From Nitrospirota bacterium (GTDB lineage: Bacteria > Nitrospirota > Thermodesulfovibrionia > Thermodesulfovibrionales > SM23-35): a DNA stretch of 64,000 bases. The notes beneath the pieces were generated by a model. That model had not been told where the DNA came from and did not search any database. It saw only the letters and a program-made list of their open reading frames with translations. The DNA is taken from positions 1,759-65,758 of the forward strand of contig JACUUX010000005.1 of assembly GCA_014859105.1 (NCBI GenBank), read 5' to 3'. The translations under genes and the position numbers were made by a program. This document shows positions 2,196 through 53,941 of this stretch, piece by piece. The stretch's first letter is position 1. Every line of letters starts with the position of its first letter.

Positions 2196-2765
2196 ATGAA
2201 TACGGTATTAAAGGCGATTGCTGAAAGAAGGGCTGTAAGAACTTATGAATCAAAGCCGGTTCACAGGAACATGATTAACAAGATTATAGAAGCAGCAAAT
2301 CAGGCACCGTCTGCCATGAACAGCCAGCCGTGGAGGTTTGTTGTGGTTGAAGACAAAGAATTCCATAAAAAACTCACTGAAGCAGCAATCCCTCAGAGCC
2401 GGAAACGGCTTGAGTCTTTCAAGAATGCTAATCCGGAAAGATATGAGGCTATCATGAAAAGATACGATGAACTTGAGGATCCGATTTACTATTCATCTCC
2501 TGTGATAATATTCGTCATCGGGTCGGGCCCTTTTGCAGATCTTTCATGCCCGCTTGCATGTCAGAATATAATGTTAGCTGCATATTCACTGGGACTTGGA
2601 AGCTGCTGGGTACATTTTGGCTCTCTGGTTACAGATAATGAAGAAATAAGGAAAGAACTTGAATTCAAGGAAGACGAGAAGATATACGGGCCTATAATTA
2701 TTGGTCATACTCAGAAATTCCCTGAACCACCGCCGAAAAAAGAGGCACATGTAAAGTGGATATAG
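2196..2765 (+). CDS. nitroreductase family protein
   Basis: N-terminal RRAVRTY...P motif, SAMNSQPWRFVVV, GGAGG RBS upstream. Confidence 0.8.
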   Translation: MNTVLKAIAERRAVRTYESKPVHRNMINKIIEAANQAPSAMNSQPWRFVVVEDKEFHKKLTEAAIPQSRKRLESFKNANPERYEAIMKRYDELEDPIYYSSPVIIFVIGSGPFADLSCPLACQNIMLAAYSLGLGSCWVHFGSLVTDNEEIRKELEFKEDEKIYGPIIIGHTQKFPEPPPKKEAHVKWI

Positions 2766-2773
2766 TGATTTAT

Positions 2774-5146
2774 TTATTTTAACATTATTAAAGTTATACC
2801 ATTACCTCCTTCTTCGAAAGTTCCGCTCCTGAAGGATTTTACAAGAGGGTGCCCGTTCAAATGTTCATGTATAGCTTTCATTAGCAGTCCCTTGCCGATA
2901 CCATGAATAATTATTCCCTCACGCAATTCAGCTAAAGCAGCATGGTTAAGGAATTTTTCAAGTCTTGATAGTGCCTCATCCACTCTTAAGCCAACGAGAT
3001 TTATTCTCGATGAAACAGTCTCTTCTTTTTCTTTATCGACCTGAAAAGTGCCCTCTTTTACAGGTATAGCTTTATCTTTCTTGAAACGTATCTCTGATAA
3101 CGGGACTTCAATCTCCATATTTTTAGCCAATATTTTTAGCCGGTTATTTTTCCTGTTAATGTCTATGACTGATGCATCGTATCCAAGAGGTATGACAAAT
3201 ACCACGTCTCCCTCTTTTATCTCATCTATTAAAGGAATGGCATGGTCTTCTGTTTCATATTTCATACGTTTTTTCTCGATCTCTACTTTATTGGATTCGT
3301 GTTGCTTGAGAATCTTACGGCTTTCTTCCTTTCCTTTTTTCTTCATTTCTTCAAGCAAGGCATTCATCTGCCTTCGTGTTTCTGAAACGATATCTGAAGC
3401 CTCTTTATAAGCATTTGCGAGTATTTCTTTTTGTCTTTTTTCCAATTCGGATACCCTTTGTCTGAGCAGTCTGTTTTTTTCTTCTATTTCTGCTTTCTGT
3501 TGTTTAAGTTCATTAAGCATTTTTTCGTATTGCAATCTTTTTTCGTTAAGATCAGCTATCAGATTGTCAAATTCAGATTTCATCGTCCCTAATAGACCTT
3601 TTGCTTCATTGATTACATTATCCGGCATGCCATATCTTCTCGCTATCTCAATGGCGTGGGATTGTCCTGGCTCGCCAATCCTTAATCTGTATAAAGGGGT
3701 AAGGGTTTTTAAATCAAATTCCATTGAGGCATTGATCATACTTTCTGTCCTGTGAACAAACCCCTTTATCTCTGACAGATGCGTAGTCGCAAAAACAAGT
3801 GCTTTTCTTTTTCTTAATTCTTTTAAAATCGCACACGATATTGCCGCACCTTCTTCAGGGTCGGTTCCTGTGCCGAGTTCATCTATGAGAATGACTGATT
3901 TAGTATCTTTGTTCTTCAGGATTTCAGATATATTTGATATATGTGCAGAAAATGTGGAAAGGTTTTTTTCTATCGACTGTTCATCTCCTATATCTACTAA
4001 TAGATTCTGGACAAGCGGTATGCTTGATGAAGAGTCAGCAGGTATGGGCATGCCGGATAATGCCATGATAATGAGAAGTCCGATAGTCTTGATCGCCACC
4101 GTTTTTCCTCCTGCATTTGCACCTGTTATGACCATTACAGTATTTCCATTTCCCAAATGGATATCGAGGGGTTCTATACGCTGACCACTGCTTATTTTTT
4201 TTAGGGAGAGTTCAAGAAGAGGATGTCTTGCCTTTTCGAGCTTGATTATATCTGAAGAATTTACTTGAGCAGATTCCATCCGGAGGAAATCAGCAAACCT
4301 TGAAATACAATTAAGGACATCGATGTAGAGGATAGTTTTAAATTCTGCTTCTATTTCGTTTATTACTTTTCTTATCATCGAACAGATATTCCTTAAAATT
4401 CGGATCTCCTCCGCCTTTTGCTCGGCGATAAGATTTTCGAGTTCATTAGAGAGATTTATAATAGATAGAGGTTCAATAAATGCAGTTTCCCCGGATTTTG
4501 AAACATCATGAACAACACCTGGCACCATTCCCTTGGAGTCCATCCTGACGGGTATTACCCATCTTCCAGATCTTGTTGTGATAAAATCATCCTGCAGAAA
4601 AACAGAAATTTTTCCGTCTCTCACAATATCTTCGAGTTTTTTACGTATTCTTGCTTCGAGTTTTCTTACCCGGGCTCTCAAATCAGAAAGAAGAAATGAG
4701 GCGCTGTCAAGGATATTCCCCTCACTGTCAATGGATTTTTTGAGAATATTAAATATATCAGGGAATCCGGTAAGATTATTTGTAATTTTTTTTAAAAACG
4801 GCAGATCAAATCTGTCTTTTAGCTGTTCTGATATATCACAGGCGATGCTCAGTACCGGTATAAATTCAGAAAGCTCCTTTGCTTCAAGAACTGCCCCTTC
4901 GGGTTTTATCTTTACAATGTGCTGAGATATATCCGAAAAAAAAGACAGCTTAAGCGGGCTGCCATCGTGGGATGTTTTCCGTATCTCTGAGACCTGCTTA
5001 AGCCTATTTTCGATATCTTCTTTATTATTAAGAGGATAGATTTCTAAAACAGATTTTTTTGAAGCCTCACTGTTCGAATAATCAGCAATAAGCCTTAAAA
5101 GTTTATCGAATTCAAGGAGTTCCATGGAATTTATAGGAACCATCAT
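2774..5146 (-). CDS. mutS2: endonuclease MutS2 (MutS domain V ATPase plus C-terminal Smr)
   Basis: 790 aa, Walker A GANAGGKTV, DELGTGTDP, coiled-coil linker, and a Smr domain at the C-terminus (LRVDEAL...IIHGIGKGLL). Confidence 0.9.
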   Translation of the reverse strand: MMVPINSMELLEFDKLLRLIADYSNSEASKKSVLEIYPLNNKEDIENRLKQVSEIRKTSHDGSPLKLSFFSDISQHIVKIKPEGAVLEAKELSEFIPVLSIACDISEQLKDRFDLPFLKKITNNLTGFPDIFNILKKSIDSEGNILDSASFLLSDLRARVRKLEARIRKKLEDIVRDGKISVFLQDDFITTRSGRWVIPVRMDSKGMVPGVVHDVSKSGETAFIEPLSIINLSNELENLIAEQKAEEIRILRNICSMIRKVINEIEAEFKTILYIDVLNCISRFADFLRMESAQVNSSDIIKLEKARHPLLELSLKKISSGQRIEPLDIHLGNGNTVMVITGANAGGKTVAIKTIGLLIIMALSGMPIPADSSSSIPLVQNLLVDIGDEQSIEKNLSTFSAHISNISEILKNKDTKSVILIDELGTGTDPEEGAAISCAILKELRKRKALVFATTHLSEIKGFVHRTESMINASMEFDLKTLTPLYRLRIGEPGQSHAIEIARRYGMPDNVINEAKGLLGTMKSEFDNLIADLNEKRLQYEKMLNELKQQKAEIEEKNRLLRQRVSELEKRQKEILANAYKEASDIVSETRRQMNALLEEMKKKGKEESRKILKQHESNKVEIEKKRMKYETEDHAIPLIDEIKEGDVVFVIPLGYDASVIDINRKNNRLKILAKNMEIEVPLSEIRFKKDKAIPVKEGTFQVDKEKEETVSSRINLVGLRVDEALSRLEKFLNHAALAELREGIIIHGIGKGLLMKAIHEHLNGHPLVKSFRSGTFEEGGNGITLIMLK

Positions 5147-32460: not shown

Positions 32461-32583
32461 TAATACAAACGCATTAAGTAAAATGTCATTGCGAGGAGCG
32501 CTAGCGATGTGGCAATCCCAAAAACGAGATTGCTTCGCTTCGCTCGCAATGACAATGTAAAGATATTAAGTGCGTTTGTATTA
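32461..32583. repeat. ~123-bp element: CATTGCGAGG...GCAATGAC core flanked by 13-17-bp inverted repeats
   Basis: Core is GTCATTGCGAGGAGCGCTAGCGATGTGGCAATCC...GAGATTGCTTCGCTTCGCTCGCAATGAC. Outer inverted repeat is TAATACAAACGCA / TGCGTTTGTATTA. Confidence 0.75.
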
Positions 32584-40742: not shown

Positions 40743-40940
40743 ATGCCCTATGTAAGGGTTCGTCAGGGTGATTCTTTCGAAAATGCACTGAAAAAGTTCA
40801 AAAAACAGTGCGAAAAAGAAGGAATACTTTCCGAGATAAAGAAGAGAGAGCATTATGAAAAGCCAAGCGTAAAAAAGAAAAAAAAGGCGATTGCTGCTCG
40901 TAAAAAGGCTGTTAAAAAAGTCAGAATGGCGGTCAGGTAA
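40743..40940 (+). CDS. rpsU: 30S ribosomal protein S21
   Basis: [31 protein letters not shown]...HYEKPS. Confidence 0.95.
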
Positions 40941-41107
40941 TGCCCCTTCTTCAAACATTTGACGACGATCTTAAGTCTGCACTGAAAACATCGGACAACC
41001 TGAAGGTTTCTGTTCTAAGAATGCTTAAAGCAGCCCTGAAGAATAAACAGATAGATAAAAGGGGTGAATTGTCCGATGATGACATAATCTCTGTTAGAAA
41101 TTCTTGA
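40940..41107 (+). pseudogene. GatB/YqeY-domain gene remnant (internal deletion)
   Basis: A 55-codon ORF ([52 protein letters not shown]...) matches only the YqeY N-terminus. An out-of-frame ...DLVEILKIE* tail follows. Full-length YqeY proteins are roughly 150 aa. Confidence 0.6.
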
Positions 41108-41154
41108 ATATTGCGGCTTCAGAAGATTTAGTCGAAATTCTTAAAATAGAATGA

Positions 41155-42840
41155 ATGAAAACTGACAGGCTACTCGATGAAATAAAGTCAAAAGTTGACA
41201 TCGTAGAATTTATATCCGATTACGTCCCTTTAAAAAAATCTGGCCAGAACTATAAAGGACTCTGCCCTTTCCACTCTGAAAAAACTCCATCATTTATGGT
41301 CAGCCAGTCCAAACAGATCTTCCACTGTTTCGGATGCGGAGCAGGTGGCGATTTGATAAGTTTCTTAATGAAACATGATAATCTGACATTTGGTGAAGCA
41401 ATACGGTATATCGCAAAAAAGGCCGGGATAAATTTAAAAGACTTTAAGTTCGATAAAAATAATACTTCTGAAAAGCGTGAAAAACTAATACAGGCAAATG
41501 AGGAGGCAATAAAGTTTTATTCAAGAAACCTTGCTGATTCAGAGACAGCTAAAACATATCTCAAAAAAAGAGGTATTGCGGAAGAATCTATTCTCAGCTT
41601 TCGGATAGGTTATGCAAACGATGAGAGAGACGGCCTTTTCAGACATATGAAGAAGATGGGATACAGCGACTCTTTGATAAAAGACGCAGGGCTCATTGTA
41701 GCAGATGGCAGAGGATACAGGGATTTATTCAGGAAACGTATCATTTTCCCGATATATAATCTGCAGAATGATGCAATCGCATTCGGAGGCAGGGTTACGG
41801 ACGATTCTCTTCCCAAATACATTAACTCACCCGAAACCGGGGTGTTTAAAAAGAGCGAATCCCTTTTCGCGATAAGCCTTTCTAAGGAGGCTATCAGAAA
41901 GAAAGGTCTTGCCATTATTGTCGAGGGATATCTTGATGCTATTATATGTCACCAATATGGTTTTAAAAATACAGTTGCACCTCTCGGAACAGCTCTCACT
42001 CCGATGCACTTGCGCAGGCTAAAATTAGTTGCCAGAAAAGTCATTTTGATTTTCGATGCTGATGAAGCAGGCATTGCTGCTGCAAGAAGGTCACTGTCAA
42101 CACTTGCTGAACTTGACTTCAGATCTAAGGTCATGTTATTGCCCCGAGGTGAAGACCCCGACAGCTTCCTCAGAAAACATGGCAACAAGACATTTAAGAA
42201 AATGCTTGCTGAGGCAATGTCGATGGTGGAATTTCTGCTTAAGACATCAAAAGGAGATAAAATTGACAATGTAAGAGAGACACTTGGTATTATTTCAGCT
42301 ATGCAAGACCTGATTATAGCGGATGAGATGTTAAATGAACTTTCTGACAGATCAAAAATCAACGAGGCTGTTCTCAGAGAGGAACTTAAAAAGATAAAAA
42401 AGAATTTAAAGTTAAGTAGCCATGCAATAGAGATGAAACCAGTCGGGACACAAATTAACAGGGAAGAATGTATTCTGCTAAGCGCTATCATCTCCTTTCC
42501 GGAAAAGGCTGATGATGTACTTTCAAGACTGGTTATTGAAGATCTGACGGATGCAAATATCAGATCGATATTAAGAAAAATTGAAGCGGTTAAAGATAAT
42601 TTAAACATAAGTACATTGCTTGAGAAGGCTGACGAGAAAGAAAGGGCACTGATTACAGAGCTTTCATTTAACCCGGGCTTTGATCCTGAACATGTTGAGA
42701 AAAATATTAATGATTGTCTGAATATCCTGAGACAACGAAAATTCGAGGAGAAAAGAAAAATCGCCGAGGAATACGGGGATATCTCACTACTTGATTCATT
42801 ATTAAAAGAAAAACGGAGGCTTATTAAGAAGGAGCGATAA
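41155..42840 (+). CDS. dnaG: DNA primase
   Basis: Zn finger [11 protein letters not shown]...CFGCG and a TOPRIM domain (EGYLD, DADEAG). Confidence 0.95.
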
Positions 42841-44399
42841 TGAAGTATAATTCTGATTACTTTGATTATTTTGAATACTACAATAAGGAAAGAGACGATC
42901 TTGATTTTGAGGCAGAAGCTGAGGATGTCGAATTAGACGAAGAAATAAAACCCTCTTTTATTGAAAGTGAAAAAGACCCGGTCCGTATTTATTTAAGGGA
43001 GATGAGTACCGTACCTTTACTAACAAGAGAAGGTGAAATCGAAATTGCTAAAAGAATAGAAAAGGGAAGAGAAAAAGTCTACAGGGTAATATTTTCAATG
43101 CCCTTCGTGCTTAAAAAACTGATTATGATGGGAAAGCTGTTCAAGAGCGGGGAAGCACCGGTTACAGATATAATTCAGGTCAGCGAAGATGACACCGAAG
43201 AAGAGCTGCTCTCGTACAGAAAGAGATTTTTTGAGATTACAAAGGAAATAGACTATTTAAATAAAAAAAGAAGATTCTACCTGAAAAGATTTAAAGAAAT
43301 TACATCCCTTATAAACTCAAAAGAAACTTCCAAAAATAAAATTACTAGGGAAAATATCAACATATATCAAAAATATATTACGATTCTCGAGGAAAACAGA
43401 AAACAGATATTAGAAAAAATCAGGGAGTTAAGATTAAAAGAGGATGTTATAACAGCATTTTCGGAAGAATTGAAGCGGACAGTTTCAGAATTGGACTCTA
43501 TTCAGAAAAAAATCTCAAATTTAAATAAAAAATGTAAAATTGTTAAATTTGATAAAGAGAGAGAACTCCAGCAGTGCCTCAAGAAGATTAAGAAAAAGGA
43601 AATTGTATTTGGCATGAAGGCTTCCGAGATCAAAAAAGCATTGAAGGTTCTTCTGGAAGGAGAAAAAAAAGTATTCGAAGCGAGAAAAGCCATGATAGAG
43701 GCAAATCTGAGGCTCGTAATAAGTATAGCAAAACGCTATTTGGGAAGAGGGCTAAGCTTTTCTGATCTTATTCAGGAAGGTAATAGCGGGCTTATGAGAG
43801 CTGTTGATAAGTTTGAATATAAACGTGGATACAAATTCAGCACTTATGCAACCTGGTGGATCAGACAGGCAATCAGCAGGGCACTTGCGGACCAATCAAG
43901 AACTATAAGGATACCGGTACACATGGTTGAAACCATTAATAAAATCACAAAAGTGTCAAGGGAGCTTGTACAGGAACTTGGCAGAGAACCGGCACCCAGG
44001 GAGATTGCCGAAAAACTGAAAATGCCTGTTGAAAAGGTAATGGCAATTTTAAAGATATCAAAAGAGCCTATTTCTCTTGAAACTCCTATAGGCGAGGAAG
44101 ACAGTCACTTAGTGGACTTCATAGAGGATAAAGCAATATTATCTCCGCTCGATTTTGCAATACAGGATGACATGAGAGAAAAAATCAATAAAATTTTATG
44201 CTCACTTCCTCCAAAAGAAGAAAAAATCATCAGAAAGAGATTTGGTATAGGCGTTGATCTGCCGCATACACTTGAGGAGGTCGGACAGGAATTCGACGTG
44301 ACCCGTGAAAGAATAAGACAGATTGAGGTAAAAGCAATAAGAAAATTGAGACACCCATCAAGAAGCAAATGGCTCAGGGAATTTATTGAAAAGCCTTGA
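42840..44399 (+). CDS. rpoD: RNA polymerase sigma factor RpoD (primary)
   Basis: Regions 1.2-4.2, [25 protein letters not shown], in the MMS operon context. Confidence 0.95.
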
Positions 44400-49643: not shown

Positions 49644-50707
49644 TTCGAATATTCTTTTTTGAATATCAGAAAGGCAAGTACACCAAGTATAACAGATGGG
49701 CTCCAGGCACCGATATAATGTATTATCTTGCCCGCCTTTACGAGGTTCTCGCCATATAGTAAAAGCATGTAATAGAGAGTAAAGACTGCCAATCCCAGTG
49801 TTAATCCCCCAAGCCTGCCCGATTTTCCTGCTATCAACGCCAGAGGTGGTCCGAAAAATATAAGGATTATGCATAACAAAGGCAGTGAAACCCTTCTGTG
49901 AAGCTCAAGGTATAAACTTAGAGCATTACGTATATCCTCTTTTTTTATCTTCTGTATTATTTCAAAGGGAGTGAGTTCTGCTTTTTTTCCTGAAAAACTA
50001 TCAGATTCGAGCCTTAATACCATATTATATTTTTTAAAAAATAATTCTGTTGTTCTGTTCCCCTTTACAATATTAATGTAACCGTCCTTGAGATAAAAGT
50101 TTATGTCAAAATCTTTCTCTGTGTATATTTCTCCTTCTTTTGCTATCAAAACCCTCGGTTCTTTTTTATCCCGATTATCATATATAAAAATCCCCCGTAC
50201 GGTTTTATCAGAAACCCTTTCTTTTATATAAATTGTTGTGTCTTTGAATGATGAATTGAACCTTCCCTCTTCAATAGCAAGCGGAGTTCGAGCCTTTATA
50301 ATATTTGTTATCTCTTCCCTCAGTTTTATGCTACTTTTAGGCCCTAAGTAAAAACTAACCGCCATATTCAAAAAAAAACATAAAGTGCCAAGTAAAACAA
50401 CAGCCCTCGAAATATCTAAAAAATTCATACCACTGTTTCTGAGGATGATAATTTCATTATCGAAATTGAGACGGCCATAAACAAGAAGCGTAGACAACAG
50501 GAGGGCCATTGGAATGGTGAGCAAGAACAGCTGAGGCTGTATGTAAAAGATTATTCTGACCATATCCAATATAGATGTGCCAATGCCGGAAAGTAACCTG
50601 CTAAGCTTGAGCAGTTTCTCCATCATCAGAATAAAATTCAAAGAAGCAAGACTTAGGATAAATGTAAAGATTAATTCTTTTAATATCGATTTATGTATTA
50701 TTTTCAT
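49640..50707 (-). CDS. lptF: LPS export ABC permease LptF
   Basis: YjgP/YjgQ family. Start at ATG 50707 (MKIIHKSILKEL). Confidence 0.8.
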   Translation of the reverse strand: MKIIHKSILKELIFTFILSLASLNFILMMEKLLKLSRLLSGIGTSILDMVRIIFYIQPQLFLLTIPMALLLSTLLVYGRLNFDNEIIILRNSGMNFLDISRAVVLLGTLCFFLNMAVSFYLGPKSSIKLREEITNIIKARTPLAIEEGRFNSSFKDTTIYIKERVSDKTVRGIFIYDNRDKKEPRVLIAKEGEIYTEKDFDINFYLKDGYINIVKGNRTTELFFKKYNMVLRLESDSFSGKKAELTPFEIIQKIKKEDIRNALSLYLELHRRVSLPLLCIILIFFGPPLALIAGKSGRLGGLTLGLAVFTLYYMLLLYGENLVKAGKIIHYIGAWSPSVILGVLAFLIFKKEYSK

Positions 50708-50914
50708 GGATTGATAAGAATATAATATTTTATCATAATCATTCACTGTCCATTTATAAACTGAAAATCAGTCCGCAGGATGAAAGAAGAAAATTGTTTT
50801 ATATGTGCATTCTGATATTTTCTGTCACGTTTTGGTCACGGTAAAAAAAGGTAAAAATATGGATAACACTAATGTATAACAAGAAAAAAAAGGTGTTGGA
50901 TCAGACACATTTAG

Positions 50915-51051
50915 CAGCAATTCTCGGTGAAATTGAAAACCCTTGAGATTGCTTCGCTTCGCTCGCAATGACAAAACAATATTTCGTAAACAGTCATTGC
51001 GAGGGGCCTTATCCTGAAGCAATCTCCTAACTTTTTCGCCGAGAATTGCTG
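50915..51051. mobile_element. 137-bp MITE-like element with 13-14-bp TIRs and a flanking direct repeat
   Basis: TIRs are CAGCAATTCTCGG (50915..50927) and CCGAGAATTGCTG (51039..51051). Flanks are CACATTTA (50906..50913) and CACATTTA (51052..59). The interior holds two inverted CATTGCGAGG/GCAATC modules. Confidence 0.75.
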
Positions 51052-51175
51052 CACATTTATTTTCTTGTTAGTTTAAAGCTATGAAAATATGGTATTGTAT
51101 GCTAAACATTAAAGTTAGAGAAACCTCAAAGCTTTAAGGGCTTTGAAATTCTTATTCAATCAAGCGAGGGTAAAT

Positions 51176-51514
51176 ATGGGCAAAAAACTGTATGTAGGAA
51201 GTATCTCTTTCAATGCAACTGAGGAATCTCTCCGGGAACTCTTCTCAGGCATTGGAGAGGTTGAATCGGTGAAATTAATAACCGACAGGGACACGGGGCT
51301 TTCTAAAGGTTTTGGCTTTGTTGAAATGTCATCTGATGAGGATGCTAAAAAAGCTATAGAACAATTAAACGGCAAAACATTTATGGAACGTGCTTTGATC
51401 GTTAACGAGGCCAGGCCGCAGCAGCAAAGGGAGAGACGGGATTTCGGAGGAAGAGGAGGAGGAGGCGGTTTTGGACAAGGAAGGGGAACAGGTTATGGAA
51501 GAGGCAGGAGATAA
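51176..51514 (+). CDS. RRM-type RNA-binding protein with a Gly/Arg-rich tail
   Basis: RNP2 LYVGSI, RNP1 KGFGFVEM, and a C-terminal GGRGGGGGFGQGRG tail. Confidence 0.9.
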   Translation: MGKKLYVGSISFNATEESLRELFSGIGEVESVKLITDRDTGLSKGFGFVEMSSDEDAKKAIEQLNGKTFMERALIVNEARPQQQRERRDFGGRGGGGGFGQGRGTGYGRGRR

Positions 51515-51517
51515 ATT

Positions 51518-51712
51518 ATTATAGAGATAAAAGTAGTCGGCAATGATATAGAAAAAGCCATTAAAACTCTGAAACGCAAAGTTCAGATTGAAGGTCTTCT
51601 AAAGGAGCTCAAGACGAGAAGTTCCTATGAAAAGCCTTCAGTAAAAGAAAAACGGAAACGAGCAGAGGCACGCGAGAAAAGGGCGAAGGCTCAGAAACAC
51701 AGAAGGTTTTGA
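51518..51712 (+). CDS. ribosomal protein S21 paralog lacking any canonical start codon (proposed ATT start)
   Basis: The open frame 51515..51712 reads IIIEIKVVGNDIEKAIKTLKRKVQIEGLLKELKTRSSYEKPSVKEKRKRAEAREKRAKAQKHRRF. There is no in-frame ATG/GTG/TTG. AGGAG (51506..51510) lies 7 nt before ATT 51518. Confidence 0.6.
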   Translation: MIEIKVVGNDIEKAIKTLKRKVQIEGLLKELKTRSSYEKPSVKEKRKRAEAREKRAKAQKHRRF

Positions 51713-51864
51713 TAAGATTCTAAAAAGACATATCGATTTTGATACATAATCTTTTCCTGTTAACATCTGATATTGCTGCGGATATTATCGCCTTCATGGT
51801 TTGCTGCATGGGCAGTTCGGGGCGCTGACCCGCAAAGAATACCGAGCAAAAGGAGAAACAAGCA

Positions 51865-52410
51865 ATAGCTAATCGAAGACGAGTATTGCCCGGTAGGGTT
51901 GTCGATCGGACTCGCGTAAACGACCAGATCCGGATGATTAAAGCCAAGAAAATACGGGTCGTTGCCGATGAAGGGCAGATTGGCATCATAGATATTGAGT
52001 CAGCACTGAAGTTGGCCGGGGAACGAGATCTGGATCTTGTAGAAATCAGCGCCGATGCCGATCCGCCGGTCTGTAAGATCATGGACTACCAGAAGTTCAA
52101 GTTCAATAAGGGCAAGAAACTTCAGAAGTCAAGAAAAAAACAGGCGACGCTAACCCTCAAAGAAATCAGGATGCGCCCGTTGATTGGCACCCATGATTAC
52201 GAGTTCAAGAAGCTTAATGCGAGGAAGTTTATCGGGCATGGGGACAAGGTTAAAGTGACAATCCGTTTTAGAGGGCGAGAATTGAATCGCCAGGAACTGG
52301 GGGAGAAGGTTCTGAACAGGTTAGCTTCAGAACTAAAAGATATTGCAAAAGTGGAATTACCGCCGAAGATGGAAGGCCGCCAGATGGTGATGATTCTCAT
52401 GGCCTTGTAA
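51865..52410 (+). CDS. infC: translation initiation factor IF-3 (start ambiguous: ATA 51865 or TTG 51886)
   Basis: RVNDQIR...VRVV.DEG, DLDLVEIS..ADPPVCKIMDY, LKEIRMRP, ITIRFRGRE. AGGAG lies 9 nt before ATA 51865. No SD precedes TTG 51886. Confidence 0.85.
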   Translation: MANRRRVLPGRVVDRTRVNDQIRMIKAKKIRVVADEGQIGIIDIESALKLAGERDLDLVEISADADPPVCKIMDYQKFKFNKGKKLQKSRKKQATLTLKEIRMRPLIGTHDYEFKKLNARKFIGHGDKVKVTIRFRGRELNRQELGEKVLNRLASELKDIAKVELPPKMEGRQMVMILMAL

Positions 52411-52510
52411 GTCCCTTGATAGGTTTTTTGGATTCGCTCACTCTATGATAATAGATTAGCATCAGGTTCTTTCGTGCTATATCAAATATGCTTATTTTAA
52501 GGAGAATGCT

Positions 52511-53941
52511 TTGAAAGAAAGGGATATTTTTGAAGAGATTATAGAAATAGGCAAAAGGCGCGGAAAACTTACTTATGATGAGATAAACGATGCTGTTCCC
52601 CCGGAATATTTTTCCCCGGAAGAGTTAGAAGAACTTATGGACCTTCTGCACGATATGGGCATTGAAGTTGTAGATGAACAGGAGACTGAAAATGCTGAAG
52701 AAGTCTTAGCTTCTGAGGATGAAGAGGAATATGCTGAAACTGAGGATATTGTTCAAACATATTTCCATTCGATGTGGAATATTAAAATACTTACAAGGAA
52801 TGAAGAAATAGAGCTTGCGAAAAAATTAGAGGAAGGAAAAGAGATTATTAAAGGGATAGTTACGGCGCTGCCTTTATACAAGCAAGTCGAAGTAAGTTTA
52901 AATGGTAAAGACGAAGAAGATTCGGACTATTCAGAGGAAGAAAAAGCCGATGAAGCTCTGGAAATGAGCTTGAAAGTGCTTGACAATCTTCTGTTGAAAG
53001 TAGAAATTGCAGAAAGAAAGATTGCAAGATATGGGACTTTAAAAGATTTAAAAAAAATAATAAATCAAAAAAAGAAACAAGATATCAATTCCATACAACT
53101 TAATACCATTGCAAAAGAAGTTCAGGATGAGTATAAGCGGGTTGCATCAGAGGTTGGGATCAAGATTGATGAATTGAAAACGAAGTGGGAGAGAATAACC
53201 AGGGCAAGAACCCTTATTAGTGAAGCAAAGAATGAATTGGTAACCCGGAATCTGAGATTAGTAGTCAATCTTGCCAAGCATTATATTGGAAGAGGTCTTT
53301 CCTTTCTTGACCTCATTCAGGAAGGCAATATCGGTCTTATGAAATCTATAGATAAGTTCGACTATAAAATGGGATTCAAATTCAGCACCTATGCAACATG
53401 GTGGATAAGACAAGGAATAACGAGGGCATTAATTGATCAGGCAAAGACTATCAGAGTTCCTGTACACATGATGGAATTTTATAACAAAGTTACCAAGGCT
53501 TCCAGAGAACTTATATCGTATCTTGGAAGACAACCGAGCAAGGATGAAATTGCCAAAAAATTGGAAGTATCAAATAGAAAAATCGAGGAAGTATGCAGGG
53601 CAATACAGGATACAATAGCTCTTCAAACTCCGGTAGGAGATGATGGTTCAACAATTGAGGAGTTTATTAGTGACAAAGAAAGTCCTTCTCCATACTCTAA
53701 TGCAGAACAAAATGATATCACTGAGAAGATGTTAGAGATTTTGCAGACCCTAACCCCAAGGGAGGAGCAGATAATAAGGATGAGATTTGGTATTGGGGTT
53801 GATAGAGGCCAAACCCTTGAAGAAGTGGGAAGACATTTTTCCATCACACGAGAAAGGGTAAGGCAGATAGAAGCGAAAGCCATGAGGAAACTCAAACATC
53901 CAAGTAGGCTCAGAGCACTAAGGGCCTTAAATACCGCTTAA
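52511..53941 (+). CDS. second RpoD-like (group 1/2) sigma-70 factor
   Basis: Acidic N-terminus, [26 protein letters not shown], region 4.2 RERVRQIEAKAMRKLKHP. TTG start follows GGAG. Confidence 0.85.
   Translation: MKERDIFEEIIEIGKRRGKLTYDEINDAVPPEYFSPEELEELMDLLHDMGIEVVDEQETENAEEVLASEDEEEYAETEDIVQTYFHSMWNIKILTRNEEIELAKKLEEGKEIIKGIVTALPLYKQVEVSLNGKDEEDSDYSEEEKADEALEMSLKVLDNLLLKVEIAERKIARYGTLKDLKKIINQKKKQDINSIQLNTIAKEVQDEYKRVASEVGIKIDELKTKWERITRARTLISEAKNELVTRNLRLVVNLAKHYIGRGLSFLDLIQEGNIGLMKSIDKFDYKMGFKFSTYATWWIRQGITRALIDQAKTIRVPVHMMEFYNKVTKASRELISYLGRQPSKDEIAKKLEVSNRKIEEVCRAIQDTIALQTPVGDDGSTIEEFISDKESPSPYSNAEQNDITEKMLEILQTLTPREEQIIRMRFGIGVDRGQTLEEVGRHFSITRERVRQIEAKAMRKLKHPSRLRALRALNTA

Follow-up and report, generated by a model that had tools for sequence, protein, structure and literature searches.

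In the 64,000-nt stretch of Nitrospirota DNA analysed here (the window), four genes follow each other on the same strand: rbp, encoding an RNA-binding protein; an alternative gene for the ribosomal protein bS21 (called S21p below); infC, encoding initiation factor IF3; and a gene for a second sigma-70-family factor (Table 1). Translation of the frame 51515..51712 gives IIIEIKVVGNDIEKAIKTLKRKVQIEGLLKELKTRSSYEKPSVKEKRKRAEAREKRAKAQKHRRF followed by a stop, a small basic protein which comprises 63–64 aa depending on the start. The original prediction had taken this frame for a convincing S21 and the next gene 3′ of it for infC, and both assignments hold: the product matches Pfam Ribosomal_S21 (PF01165; E 7.6e-15, 54.8 bits, cut-off 27) and NCBIfam TIGR00030 (51.8 bits, cut-off 28.95) above the cut-offs, and its downstream neighbour contains the IF3_N and IF3_C domains. 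The bS21 core with the YEKPS motif is present, YEKPSVKEKRKR is invariant, and S21p and the canonical rpsU product of the window (40743..40940) are 49% identical over 35 aligned residues. The claim that the frame lacks a canonical start is likewise correct, as none of its 66 in-frame codons is ATG, GTG or TTG. Left unmentioned at that time was that S21p shares its reading frame with rbp, from which it is separated by a single TAA; the codons after this stop read ATT ATT ATA GAG ATA AAA GTA and continue to the TGA at 51710-51712, the candidate starts of S21p lying 3–6 nt 3′ of the TAA.

Table 1. Features of the rbp-S21p-infC-sigma70 region and the canonical rpsU of the same window
Feature	Position	Strand	Remarks
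Canonical rpsU, ATG start, in rpsU-yqeY-dnaG-rpoD	40743..40940	+	75.7 bits; comparison copy
Promoter-like extended -10 (TGGTATTGT) upstream of rbp	51090..51098	+	Conserved; putative promoter function
Stem-loop in the rbp 5′ leader	51126..51146	+	9 pairs; flagged by terminator-pattern scan
rbp, RRM-domain RNA-binding protein with Gly/Arg-rich tail	51176..51514	+	Pfam RRM_1, E 2.6e-24
Shine-Dalgarno AGGAGA for S21p, in the last rbp codons	51506..51511	+	Putative, read from the sequence; conserved
rbp stop TAA, in frame with S21p	51512..51514	+	TAA in 23 of 28 genomic ATH-clade sequences
S21p, alternative bS21 CDS (63 or 64 aa)	51518..51712	+	Pfam and NCBIfam matches; stop TGA 51710-51712
ATT, candidate start (-2 to Glu)	51518..51520	+	Always ATH in the ATH clade; PGAP start in GCA_031082155.1
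ATA, candidate start (-1 to Glu)	51521..51523	+	Positional homologue of the relatives' TTG/GTG/ATG
Promoter-like element in the S21p-infC spacer	51760..51788	+	TTAACA-17-TATTAT, 10/12 matches; putative function
Shine-Dalgarno AAGGAG of infC	51850..51855	+	Conserved, 9 nt before ATA
infC (IF3), start ATA 51865	51865..52410	+	IF3_N and IF3_C; TIGR00168, 204.9 bits
Second sigma-70-family factor, 3′ of infC	52511..53941	+	RpoD model NF004208, 456 bits, below cut-off 555

Relatives of S21p were collected by a scan of GTDB species genomes, which yielded 80 loci, all from Nitrospirota and mostly from Thermodesulfovibrionia, and by a metagenome scan, which yielded 80 further loci; the alignment of all loci was anchored at the conserved Glu codon (window position 51524). 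Sequences with at most 73% identity to the window have a canonical start before this Glu, while those with at least 75% have ATA or ATC. The latter constitute what is here called the ATH clade (ATT, ATC or ATA), consisting of 28 distinct genomic sequences (window included) and 12 metagenomic loci, 40 members in all. In a neighbour-joining tree this clade is monophyletic and nested within the TTG family, with the three ATC sequences in one subclade, which points to about one switch from TTG to ATA and one change from ATA to ATC. In a protein search 21 close homologues were obtained, and every one of them comes from a metagenome-assembled genome (MAG) of Nitrospirota/Thermodesulfovibrionales. 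Two or more S21 genes of the S21p family occur in the same MAG in several cases (L007/L082, L019/L072, L021/L032, L029/L041, L014/L027), either as an ATA-start copy together with a TTG-start copy (rbp-linked in L072 and L041) or as two ATH-start copies; counting the canonical rpsU expected elsewhere, there are probably Thermodesulfovibrionia with three or more bS21 genes.

That S21p might be a decaying pseudogene, or that an assembly error destroyed its start codon, could be suspected from the way it is treated by gene callers limited to ATG, GTG and TTG, which skip or shorten it (P0008, P0010-P0012, P0016, P0019-P0021), and from the JGI annotation, in which no S21p gene is called on L001-L005. 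Decay should have left accumulating frameshifts or stops in relatives, as the original prediction had pointed out, and there are none among about 160 loci, every copy being intact with a length of 61–72 aa. The pairwise medians within the ATH clade are dN 0.076, dS 0.82 (synonymous sites are near saturation) and dN/dS 0.085; of 59 third codon positions 58 are variable, of 59 second positions only 17; moreover, the AUH pair described below recurs in 40 independent assemblies. Intactness, dN/dS and third-position variation together rule out pseudogene and assembly error for practical purposes, and the residual likelihood we grant them is close to nil. Judged by these substitution patterns S21p is under purifying selection and is a functional, selected bS21 paralog gene, the product of which would be incorporated into ribosomes as part of the 30S subunit.

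In the window as well as in most of the 80 genomic loci, rbp lies directly upstream of the S21 gene on the same strand; the identical rbp protein, with unchanged neighbours, is among the calls on 5 contigs. The gap of 3–6 nt between rbp and S21p leaves no room for a promoter or terminator, and a terminator-pattern scan found no terminators between rbp, S21p and infC. A -10-like motif is shared upstream: a sequence resembling TGGTATTGT precedes the rbp ATG by 85–95 nt in most ATH-clade loci, and the motif TGGTATA(C/G)T occurs about 111–122 nt upstream of S21p in three loci where the gene stands alone (L008, L012, L013). With this arrangement rbp and S21p may well be co-transcribed. The stem-loop 51126..51146 follows the promoter-like site and precedes the rbp ATG, a location that suggests a hairpin in the leader. 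When 50600-52600 was scanned with Rfam under permissive cut-offs, no relevant known RNA element came up, the sole match being a chance one to an lncRNA (E 2.3). Just upstream of the rbp promoter-like site, at 50880-51067, lies a nested imperfect palindrome of about 190 nt with four inverted-repeat pairs and arms of up to 19 nt; its core CGCTCGCAATGAC recurs at 32541-32553 (3 matches vs 0.02 expected), and the whole looks like a REP- or MITE-like element.

Downstream of S21p, homology to IF3 reaches upstream to ATA 51865, so that the open reading frame list, which starts infC at TTG 51886, begins it late, as do the calls by JGI, with 158 or 174 aa. Thus a canonical start is missing at the conserved N-terminus of infC, too, which the original prediction did not mention. 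Among 24 infC loci, which include five copies of the window's own locus (window, L001-L003, L005), the start is ATA in 23 and ATC in one; in four relatives a stop in the same frame precedes the ATA/ATC by 6 nt, and the downstream TTG is not conserved. The direct downstream neighbour of S21p is infC in 18 of the 28 genomic members of the clade and in all 12 metagenomic ones; it lies within the flank in only one of the 53 genomic loci with TTG, GTG or ATG (L043, at 1.4 kb distance). The association of S21p with infC is real but essentially one evolutionary event. The promoter-like element TTAACA...GATATT of the S21p-infC spacer is conserved in relatives (TTAACA...GCGGATATT), and infC thus probably has a promoter of its own. 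An exception is L007, where the spacer (2696-2710) measures 15 nt (TAGGAGAAACAGGCA then ATA) vs 105–162 nt in the other clade members; there the promoter-like element is deleted and infC is tightly coupled to S21p. In the TTG-start relative L043, the rbp-S21 pair is separated from infC by a gene for a DEAD-box RNA helicase (2723-4150; LDEADRMFDMG motif), and the set of RRM protein, S21, DEAD-box helicase and IF3 resembles a cold-shock translation module.

Where translation of S21p begins can be narrowed down to two codons. Glu-Ile-Lys/Arg-Val is conserved with synonymous changes, which indicates that translation covers 51524 onward, and since upstream the rbp TAA ends the open frame and the codon at -3 is unconstrained, the start is restricted to ATT 51518 or ATA 51521. 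At -3 ten forms occur in the clade (ATT, GTT, ACT, ACC, GCT, GCG, TCT, TCA, GGT, GTC), while among the 28 genomic sequences the codon at -2 is ATC in 15, ATT in 12 and ATA in one, and that at -1 is ATA in 25 and ATC in three; all 12 metagenomic members have an ATH-ATA pair. As the original prediction had suggested checking, relatives do share such codons: a tandem ATH-ATH precedes Glu in all 40 clade members, a canonical start in none, although with TTG-to-ATA being a single event these are not 40 independent observations. The 53 more distant genomic relatives have TTG (48), GTG (3) or ATG (2) at -1. The start is thus treated as ATT 51518 or ATA 51521, a candidate tandem AUH pair of which one or both codons would initiate. 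Two further options were rejected, namely ATT 51515, a position occupied by GCG, TCA, GGT and others in relatives, and internal near-cognate codons (ATA 51527 and later), as the residues from Glu 51524 on are conserved with synonymous changes.

Between the two codons the evidence is divided. The Shine-Dalgarno sequence that had been noticed in the tail of rbp is indeed there, AGGAG at 51506-51510 being spaced 7 nt from ATT 51518 and 10 nt from ATA 51521 (the rbp 3′ end reads ...AGA GGC AGG AGA TAA); GGAGATAA at the end of rbp is conserved across the family and retained in the stand-alone S21p copies. ATA 51521 occupies exactly the position at which relatives have their TTG/GTG/ATG start, and its 10-nt spacing from GGAG equals that of many TTG relatives (10 nt or 7 nt in the TTG relatives as a whole, 9 nt in infC). 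In favour of ATT 51518, ATH is found there in every clade member, whereas the nearest TTG outgroups L030, L038 and L049 have AGT, TGC and AAC at -2, which suggests that ATH at -2 was fixed together with the loss of TTG. Further, another S21 lineage (L156, L162, L163, L165, L166) starts ATG-ATA/ATT-GAA, that is, M-I-E-V..., and by HMM register a start at 51518 gives an N-terminus as long as that of the canonical S21 (rpsU, 40743), which agrees with what had been proposed. The earlier choice of ATT 51518 stands in so far as it is one of only two possible codons; against it as the only start, ATA 51521 is the start position of the relatives and PGAP uses either. A codon-usage comparison found no difference between the variation in the -1 and -2 columns and that of ordinary internal Ile codons, so that codon patterns pick neither start nor exclude that both codons are read as Ile. 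As for a masking hairpin or thermosensor at the start, folding of 51461-51580 revealed no more structure than in shuffled controls (z -0.5). In an S21 gene of yet another lineage (L136, around 952), the codon directly before Glu is CTG and an in-frame TAA lies two codons upstream, an apparent further non-canonical start in the S21 family.

S21p is already annotated by PGAP as S21 with a non-canonical start, although its placement is inconsistent. Close homologues carry the NCBI name "30S ribosomal protein S21" and N-termini of the form MEIKVV... or MIEIKV..., from which it follows that PGAP starts them on the ATA or the preceding ATT/ATC; P0001, P0002, P0004, P0005 and P0007 begin at the ATA position, while in GCA_031082155.1, the one case checked against the DNA, the annotated start is the ATT two codons before Glu. 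Shortened entries of 42–59 aa come from JGI, ENA, Logan and three NCBI MAG records (59 aa for P0008 and P0010-P0012, 54 aa for P0016, 42–47 aa for P0019-P0021), and in P0010 and P0012, both from JGI, the first residue is printed as V. Five contigs (L001-L005), one of them a 197-kb contig from JGI and the others shorter, carry the identical locus; the JGI calls there comprise rbp, infC and the sigma gene, and S21p is uncalled on these JGI and Logan contigs. In practical terms, gene callers limited to ATG/GTG/TTG miss or shorten S21p. A paper discussing an AUH-start S21p gene was not found in the literature searched.

The reading we regard as likely is that S21p is a functional alternative bS21 gene, co-transcribed with rbp, whose translation is initiated at AUU 51518 or AUA 51521 under the direction of its Shine-Dalgarno sequence. 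S21p would be transcribed together with the upstream RRM-protein gene, the AGGAGA in the last rbp codons would hold 30S subunits, and initiator tRNA would start on the tandem near-cognate AUU or AUA, probably assisted by ribosomes arriving from rbp. Such assistance might also be the whole story: ribosomes ending rbp at the UAA 51512 and held by the Shine-Dalgarno sequence would restart at the AUU/AUA 3–6 nt on, so that S21p would be made at a fixed low ratio to the RRM protein and not via free 30S binding. The conservation of the 3–6 nt stop-start distance and of the Shine-Dalgarno sequence inside rbp in all rbp-linked clade members is in line with this, as are the classic stop/start overlap (TTGGAGATAA) seen in some relatives and the short distance of infC from the S21p stop in L007. 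On the other hand, seven clade copies stand alone without an rbp ORF (L008, L011, L012, L013, L014, L015, L022) and still retain a remnant of the last rbp codons, the Shine-Dalgarno sequence and the ATH pair. They are under purifying selection, with dN/dS vs the window of 0.02–0.11 for the six that are measurable, L022 having saturated synonymous sites. In L011 and L015 an in-frame stop is found four codons before Glu (followed in L011 by an adjacent second stop); between the preceding in-frame stop and this one there is no in-frame canonical start, and no in-frame upstream ORF. In these copies, keeping as they do Shine-Dalgarno sequence and AUH codons without rbp, initiation at AUH would occur de novo, and their persistence under selection means that coupling is not obligatory. 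Reinitiation as the sole route thus appears rather unlikely, but it may well add to Shine-Dalgarno-directed initiation instead of replacing it.

The stand-alone copies bear equally on the idea that the rbp UAA is read through to give an RRM-S21 fusion, without separate initiation, for which we see very little chance. It would account for S21p being in frame with rbp in all rbp-linked clade members, always with three codons following the TAA, and for the Ile-like behaviour of both codons before Glu. However, many TTG-start relatives are also in frame with rbp, which makes this layout ancestral and not tied to the missing start, and other relatives are in frames 1 and 2 or overlap (TTGGAGATAA); no constraint is seen on the codon that follows the stop, UAA leaks less than the other stop codons in bacteria, and among the 160 loci there is no RRM-S21 fusion ORF lacking the stop. 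Programmed readthrough is marked by constant frame, dependence and a constrained spacer, a set of features the S21p family does not show. Concerning the rbp-S21 junction itself, GAGATAAA occurs there twice, at 51508-51515 at the end of rbp (GGAGATAAA) and at 51524-51531 as S21p codons 2-4 (GAG ATA AAA). In relatives such as L071, L072, L076, L083 and L084, rbp ends on the second GAGATAAA copy so that its stop overlaps the S21 start region (TTGGAGATAA), which suggests slippage between the two copies during evolution.

Given initiation at the AUH pair under Shine-Dalgarno direction, the question arises what such a start is for. AUH is the codon class rejected by IF3, so S21p output would be low and would rise as IF3 activity falls, and the same logic would apply to infC with its AUA start 150 nt downstream of S21p. 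IF3 discrimination against AUH codons is described in PMC9723500 and PMC5499595, and some IF3 dependence of S21p would follow from it if the start assignment is right; the latter source also reports that AUA is efficient as a start in good context in vitro, so low output of S21p is not guaranteed. IF3-sensitive expression of S21p, as put forward in the original prediction, is plausible, the direct proximity of infC, itself with a conserved ATA start, being circumstantial evidence for it. It could be that the AUH start merely keeps a minor paralog at a low, constitutive level, without IF3 regulation and with the adjacency of infC being accidental, an explanation to which we give somewhat less than an even chance. 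Weak starts are common across the family (TTG or GTG in 51 of the 53 relatives), the switch to ATA and the linkage to infC each amount to about one event, and adjacent infC is missing in 10 of the 28 clade sequences. Yet reversion from ATA to ATG, a single transition, is unseen over a dS of about 0.8 although TTG relatives do shift between TTG, GTG and ATG, and, with discrimination by IF3 against AUH being general in bacteria, some IF3 dependence would be present regardless of selection. The stronger claim, that the AUH start was selected to subject an alternative bS21 to the IF3 gating that also acts on infC, both being made when IF3 is limiting relative to ribosomes, is a speculation we consider unlikely. 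If true, it would imply a changed composition of the 30S platform and changed initiation behaviour; with the RRM protein and the second sigma-70 included, the genes would make up a variant of the macromolecular-synthesis operon for stress, possibly cold. Conserved non-canonical starts in bacteria are few, and the best understood one, that of infC, is a regulatory device; with its position beside an infC that starts at AUA, S21p would offer a simple natural setting in which to ask whether the IF3 level reprograms ribosome composition, and would link start-codon fidelity control to ribosome heterogeneity.

The non-canonical infC start is the textbook device of IF3 autoregulation, the E. coli gene starting with AUU. 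Like infC, S21p has a conserved AUH start, a good Shine-Dalgarno sequence and no canonical alternative, and the infC of the window (ATA 51865) conforms to this as well; unlike infC, the product of S21p is a ribosomal protein paralog, and any IF3 dependence would be cross-regulation, not autoregulation. An ATA start of infC has been shown by mutagenesis in Flavobacterium johnsoniae (PMC7797042). The statement in the original prediction that an rbp-rpsU pair is known from cyanobacteria proved accurate: Anabaena variabilis M3 has a cold-regulated rbpA1-rpsU cluster (Sato 1994 Plant Mol Biol 24:819; Sato et al. 1997 J Bacteriol 179:7063; both as cited in PMC12232666 and PMC4424878). As far as these citing papers describe it, the two systems share a glycine-rich RRM gene directly upstream of S21 on the same strand and other S21 copies in the genome, but the locus in the window belongs to Nitrospirota (Thermodesulfovibrionia), has a non-canonical start and is followed by infC and a second sigma-70. 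Francisella tularensis has three bS21 paralogs, studied in connection with ribosome heterogeneity (PMC9578407, PMC12262407). There, too, an extra bS21 exists beside the rpsU of rpsU-(yqeY)-dnaG-rpoD and the paralogs are under selection; in contrast to S21p, regulation is via the 5′ UTR and transcript abundance, not the start codon. Nitrospirota are not among the phyla with extra bS21 genes listed in PMC9976891. While rbp-rpsU operons, bS21 paralogs and non-canonical infC starts were already known separately, what is new is their combination, that is, a clade-conserved AUH-start bS21 paralog between an RRM-protein gene and an AUA-started infC, with a second sigma-70 after them.

The macromolecular synthesis operon of E. 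coli is rpsU-dnaG-rpoD. The window contains the classical form, rpsU-yqeY-dnaG-rpoD (40743..44399), and in parallel the cluster rbp-S21p-infC-sigma70 (51176-53941), where S21 and sigma70 are again linked (51518..53941); it differs from the E. coli operon in having rbp in front, infC in place of dnaG and a sigma factor below the RpoD equivalog cut-off. The sigma factor encoded at 42840..44399 passes that model (NF004208; 574 bits vs cut-off 555), and the two sigma factors are 51% identical over 294 aligned residues. In L052, L057 and L078 a sigma gene directly follows S21p. The second cluster thus looks like a shadow macromolecular-synthesis operon. In the classical cluster, the ORF between rpsU and dnaG (40940-41107) encodes 55 aa and is named yqeY by position only; YqeY/GatB-like proteins comprise about 150 aa, and this ORF may be truncated or frameshifted.
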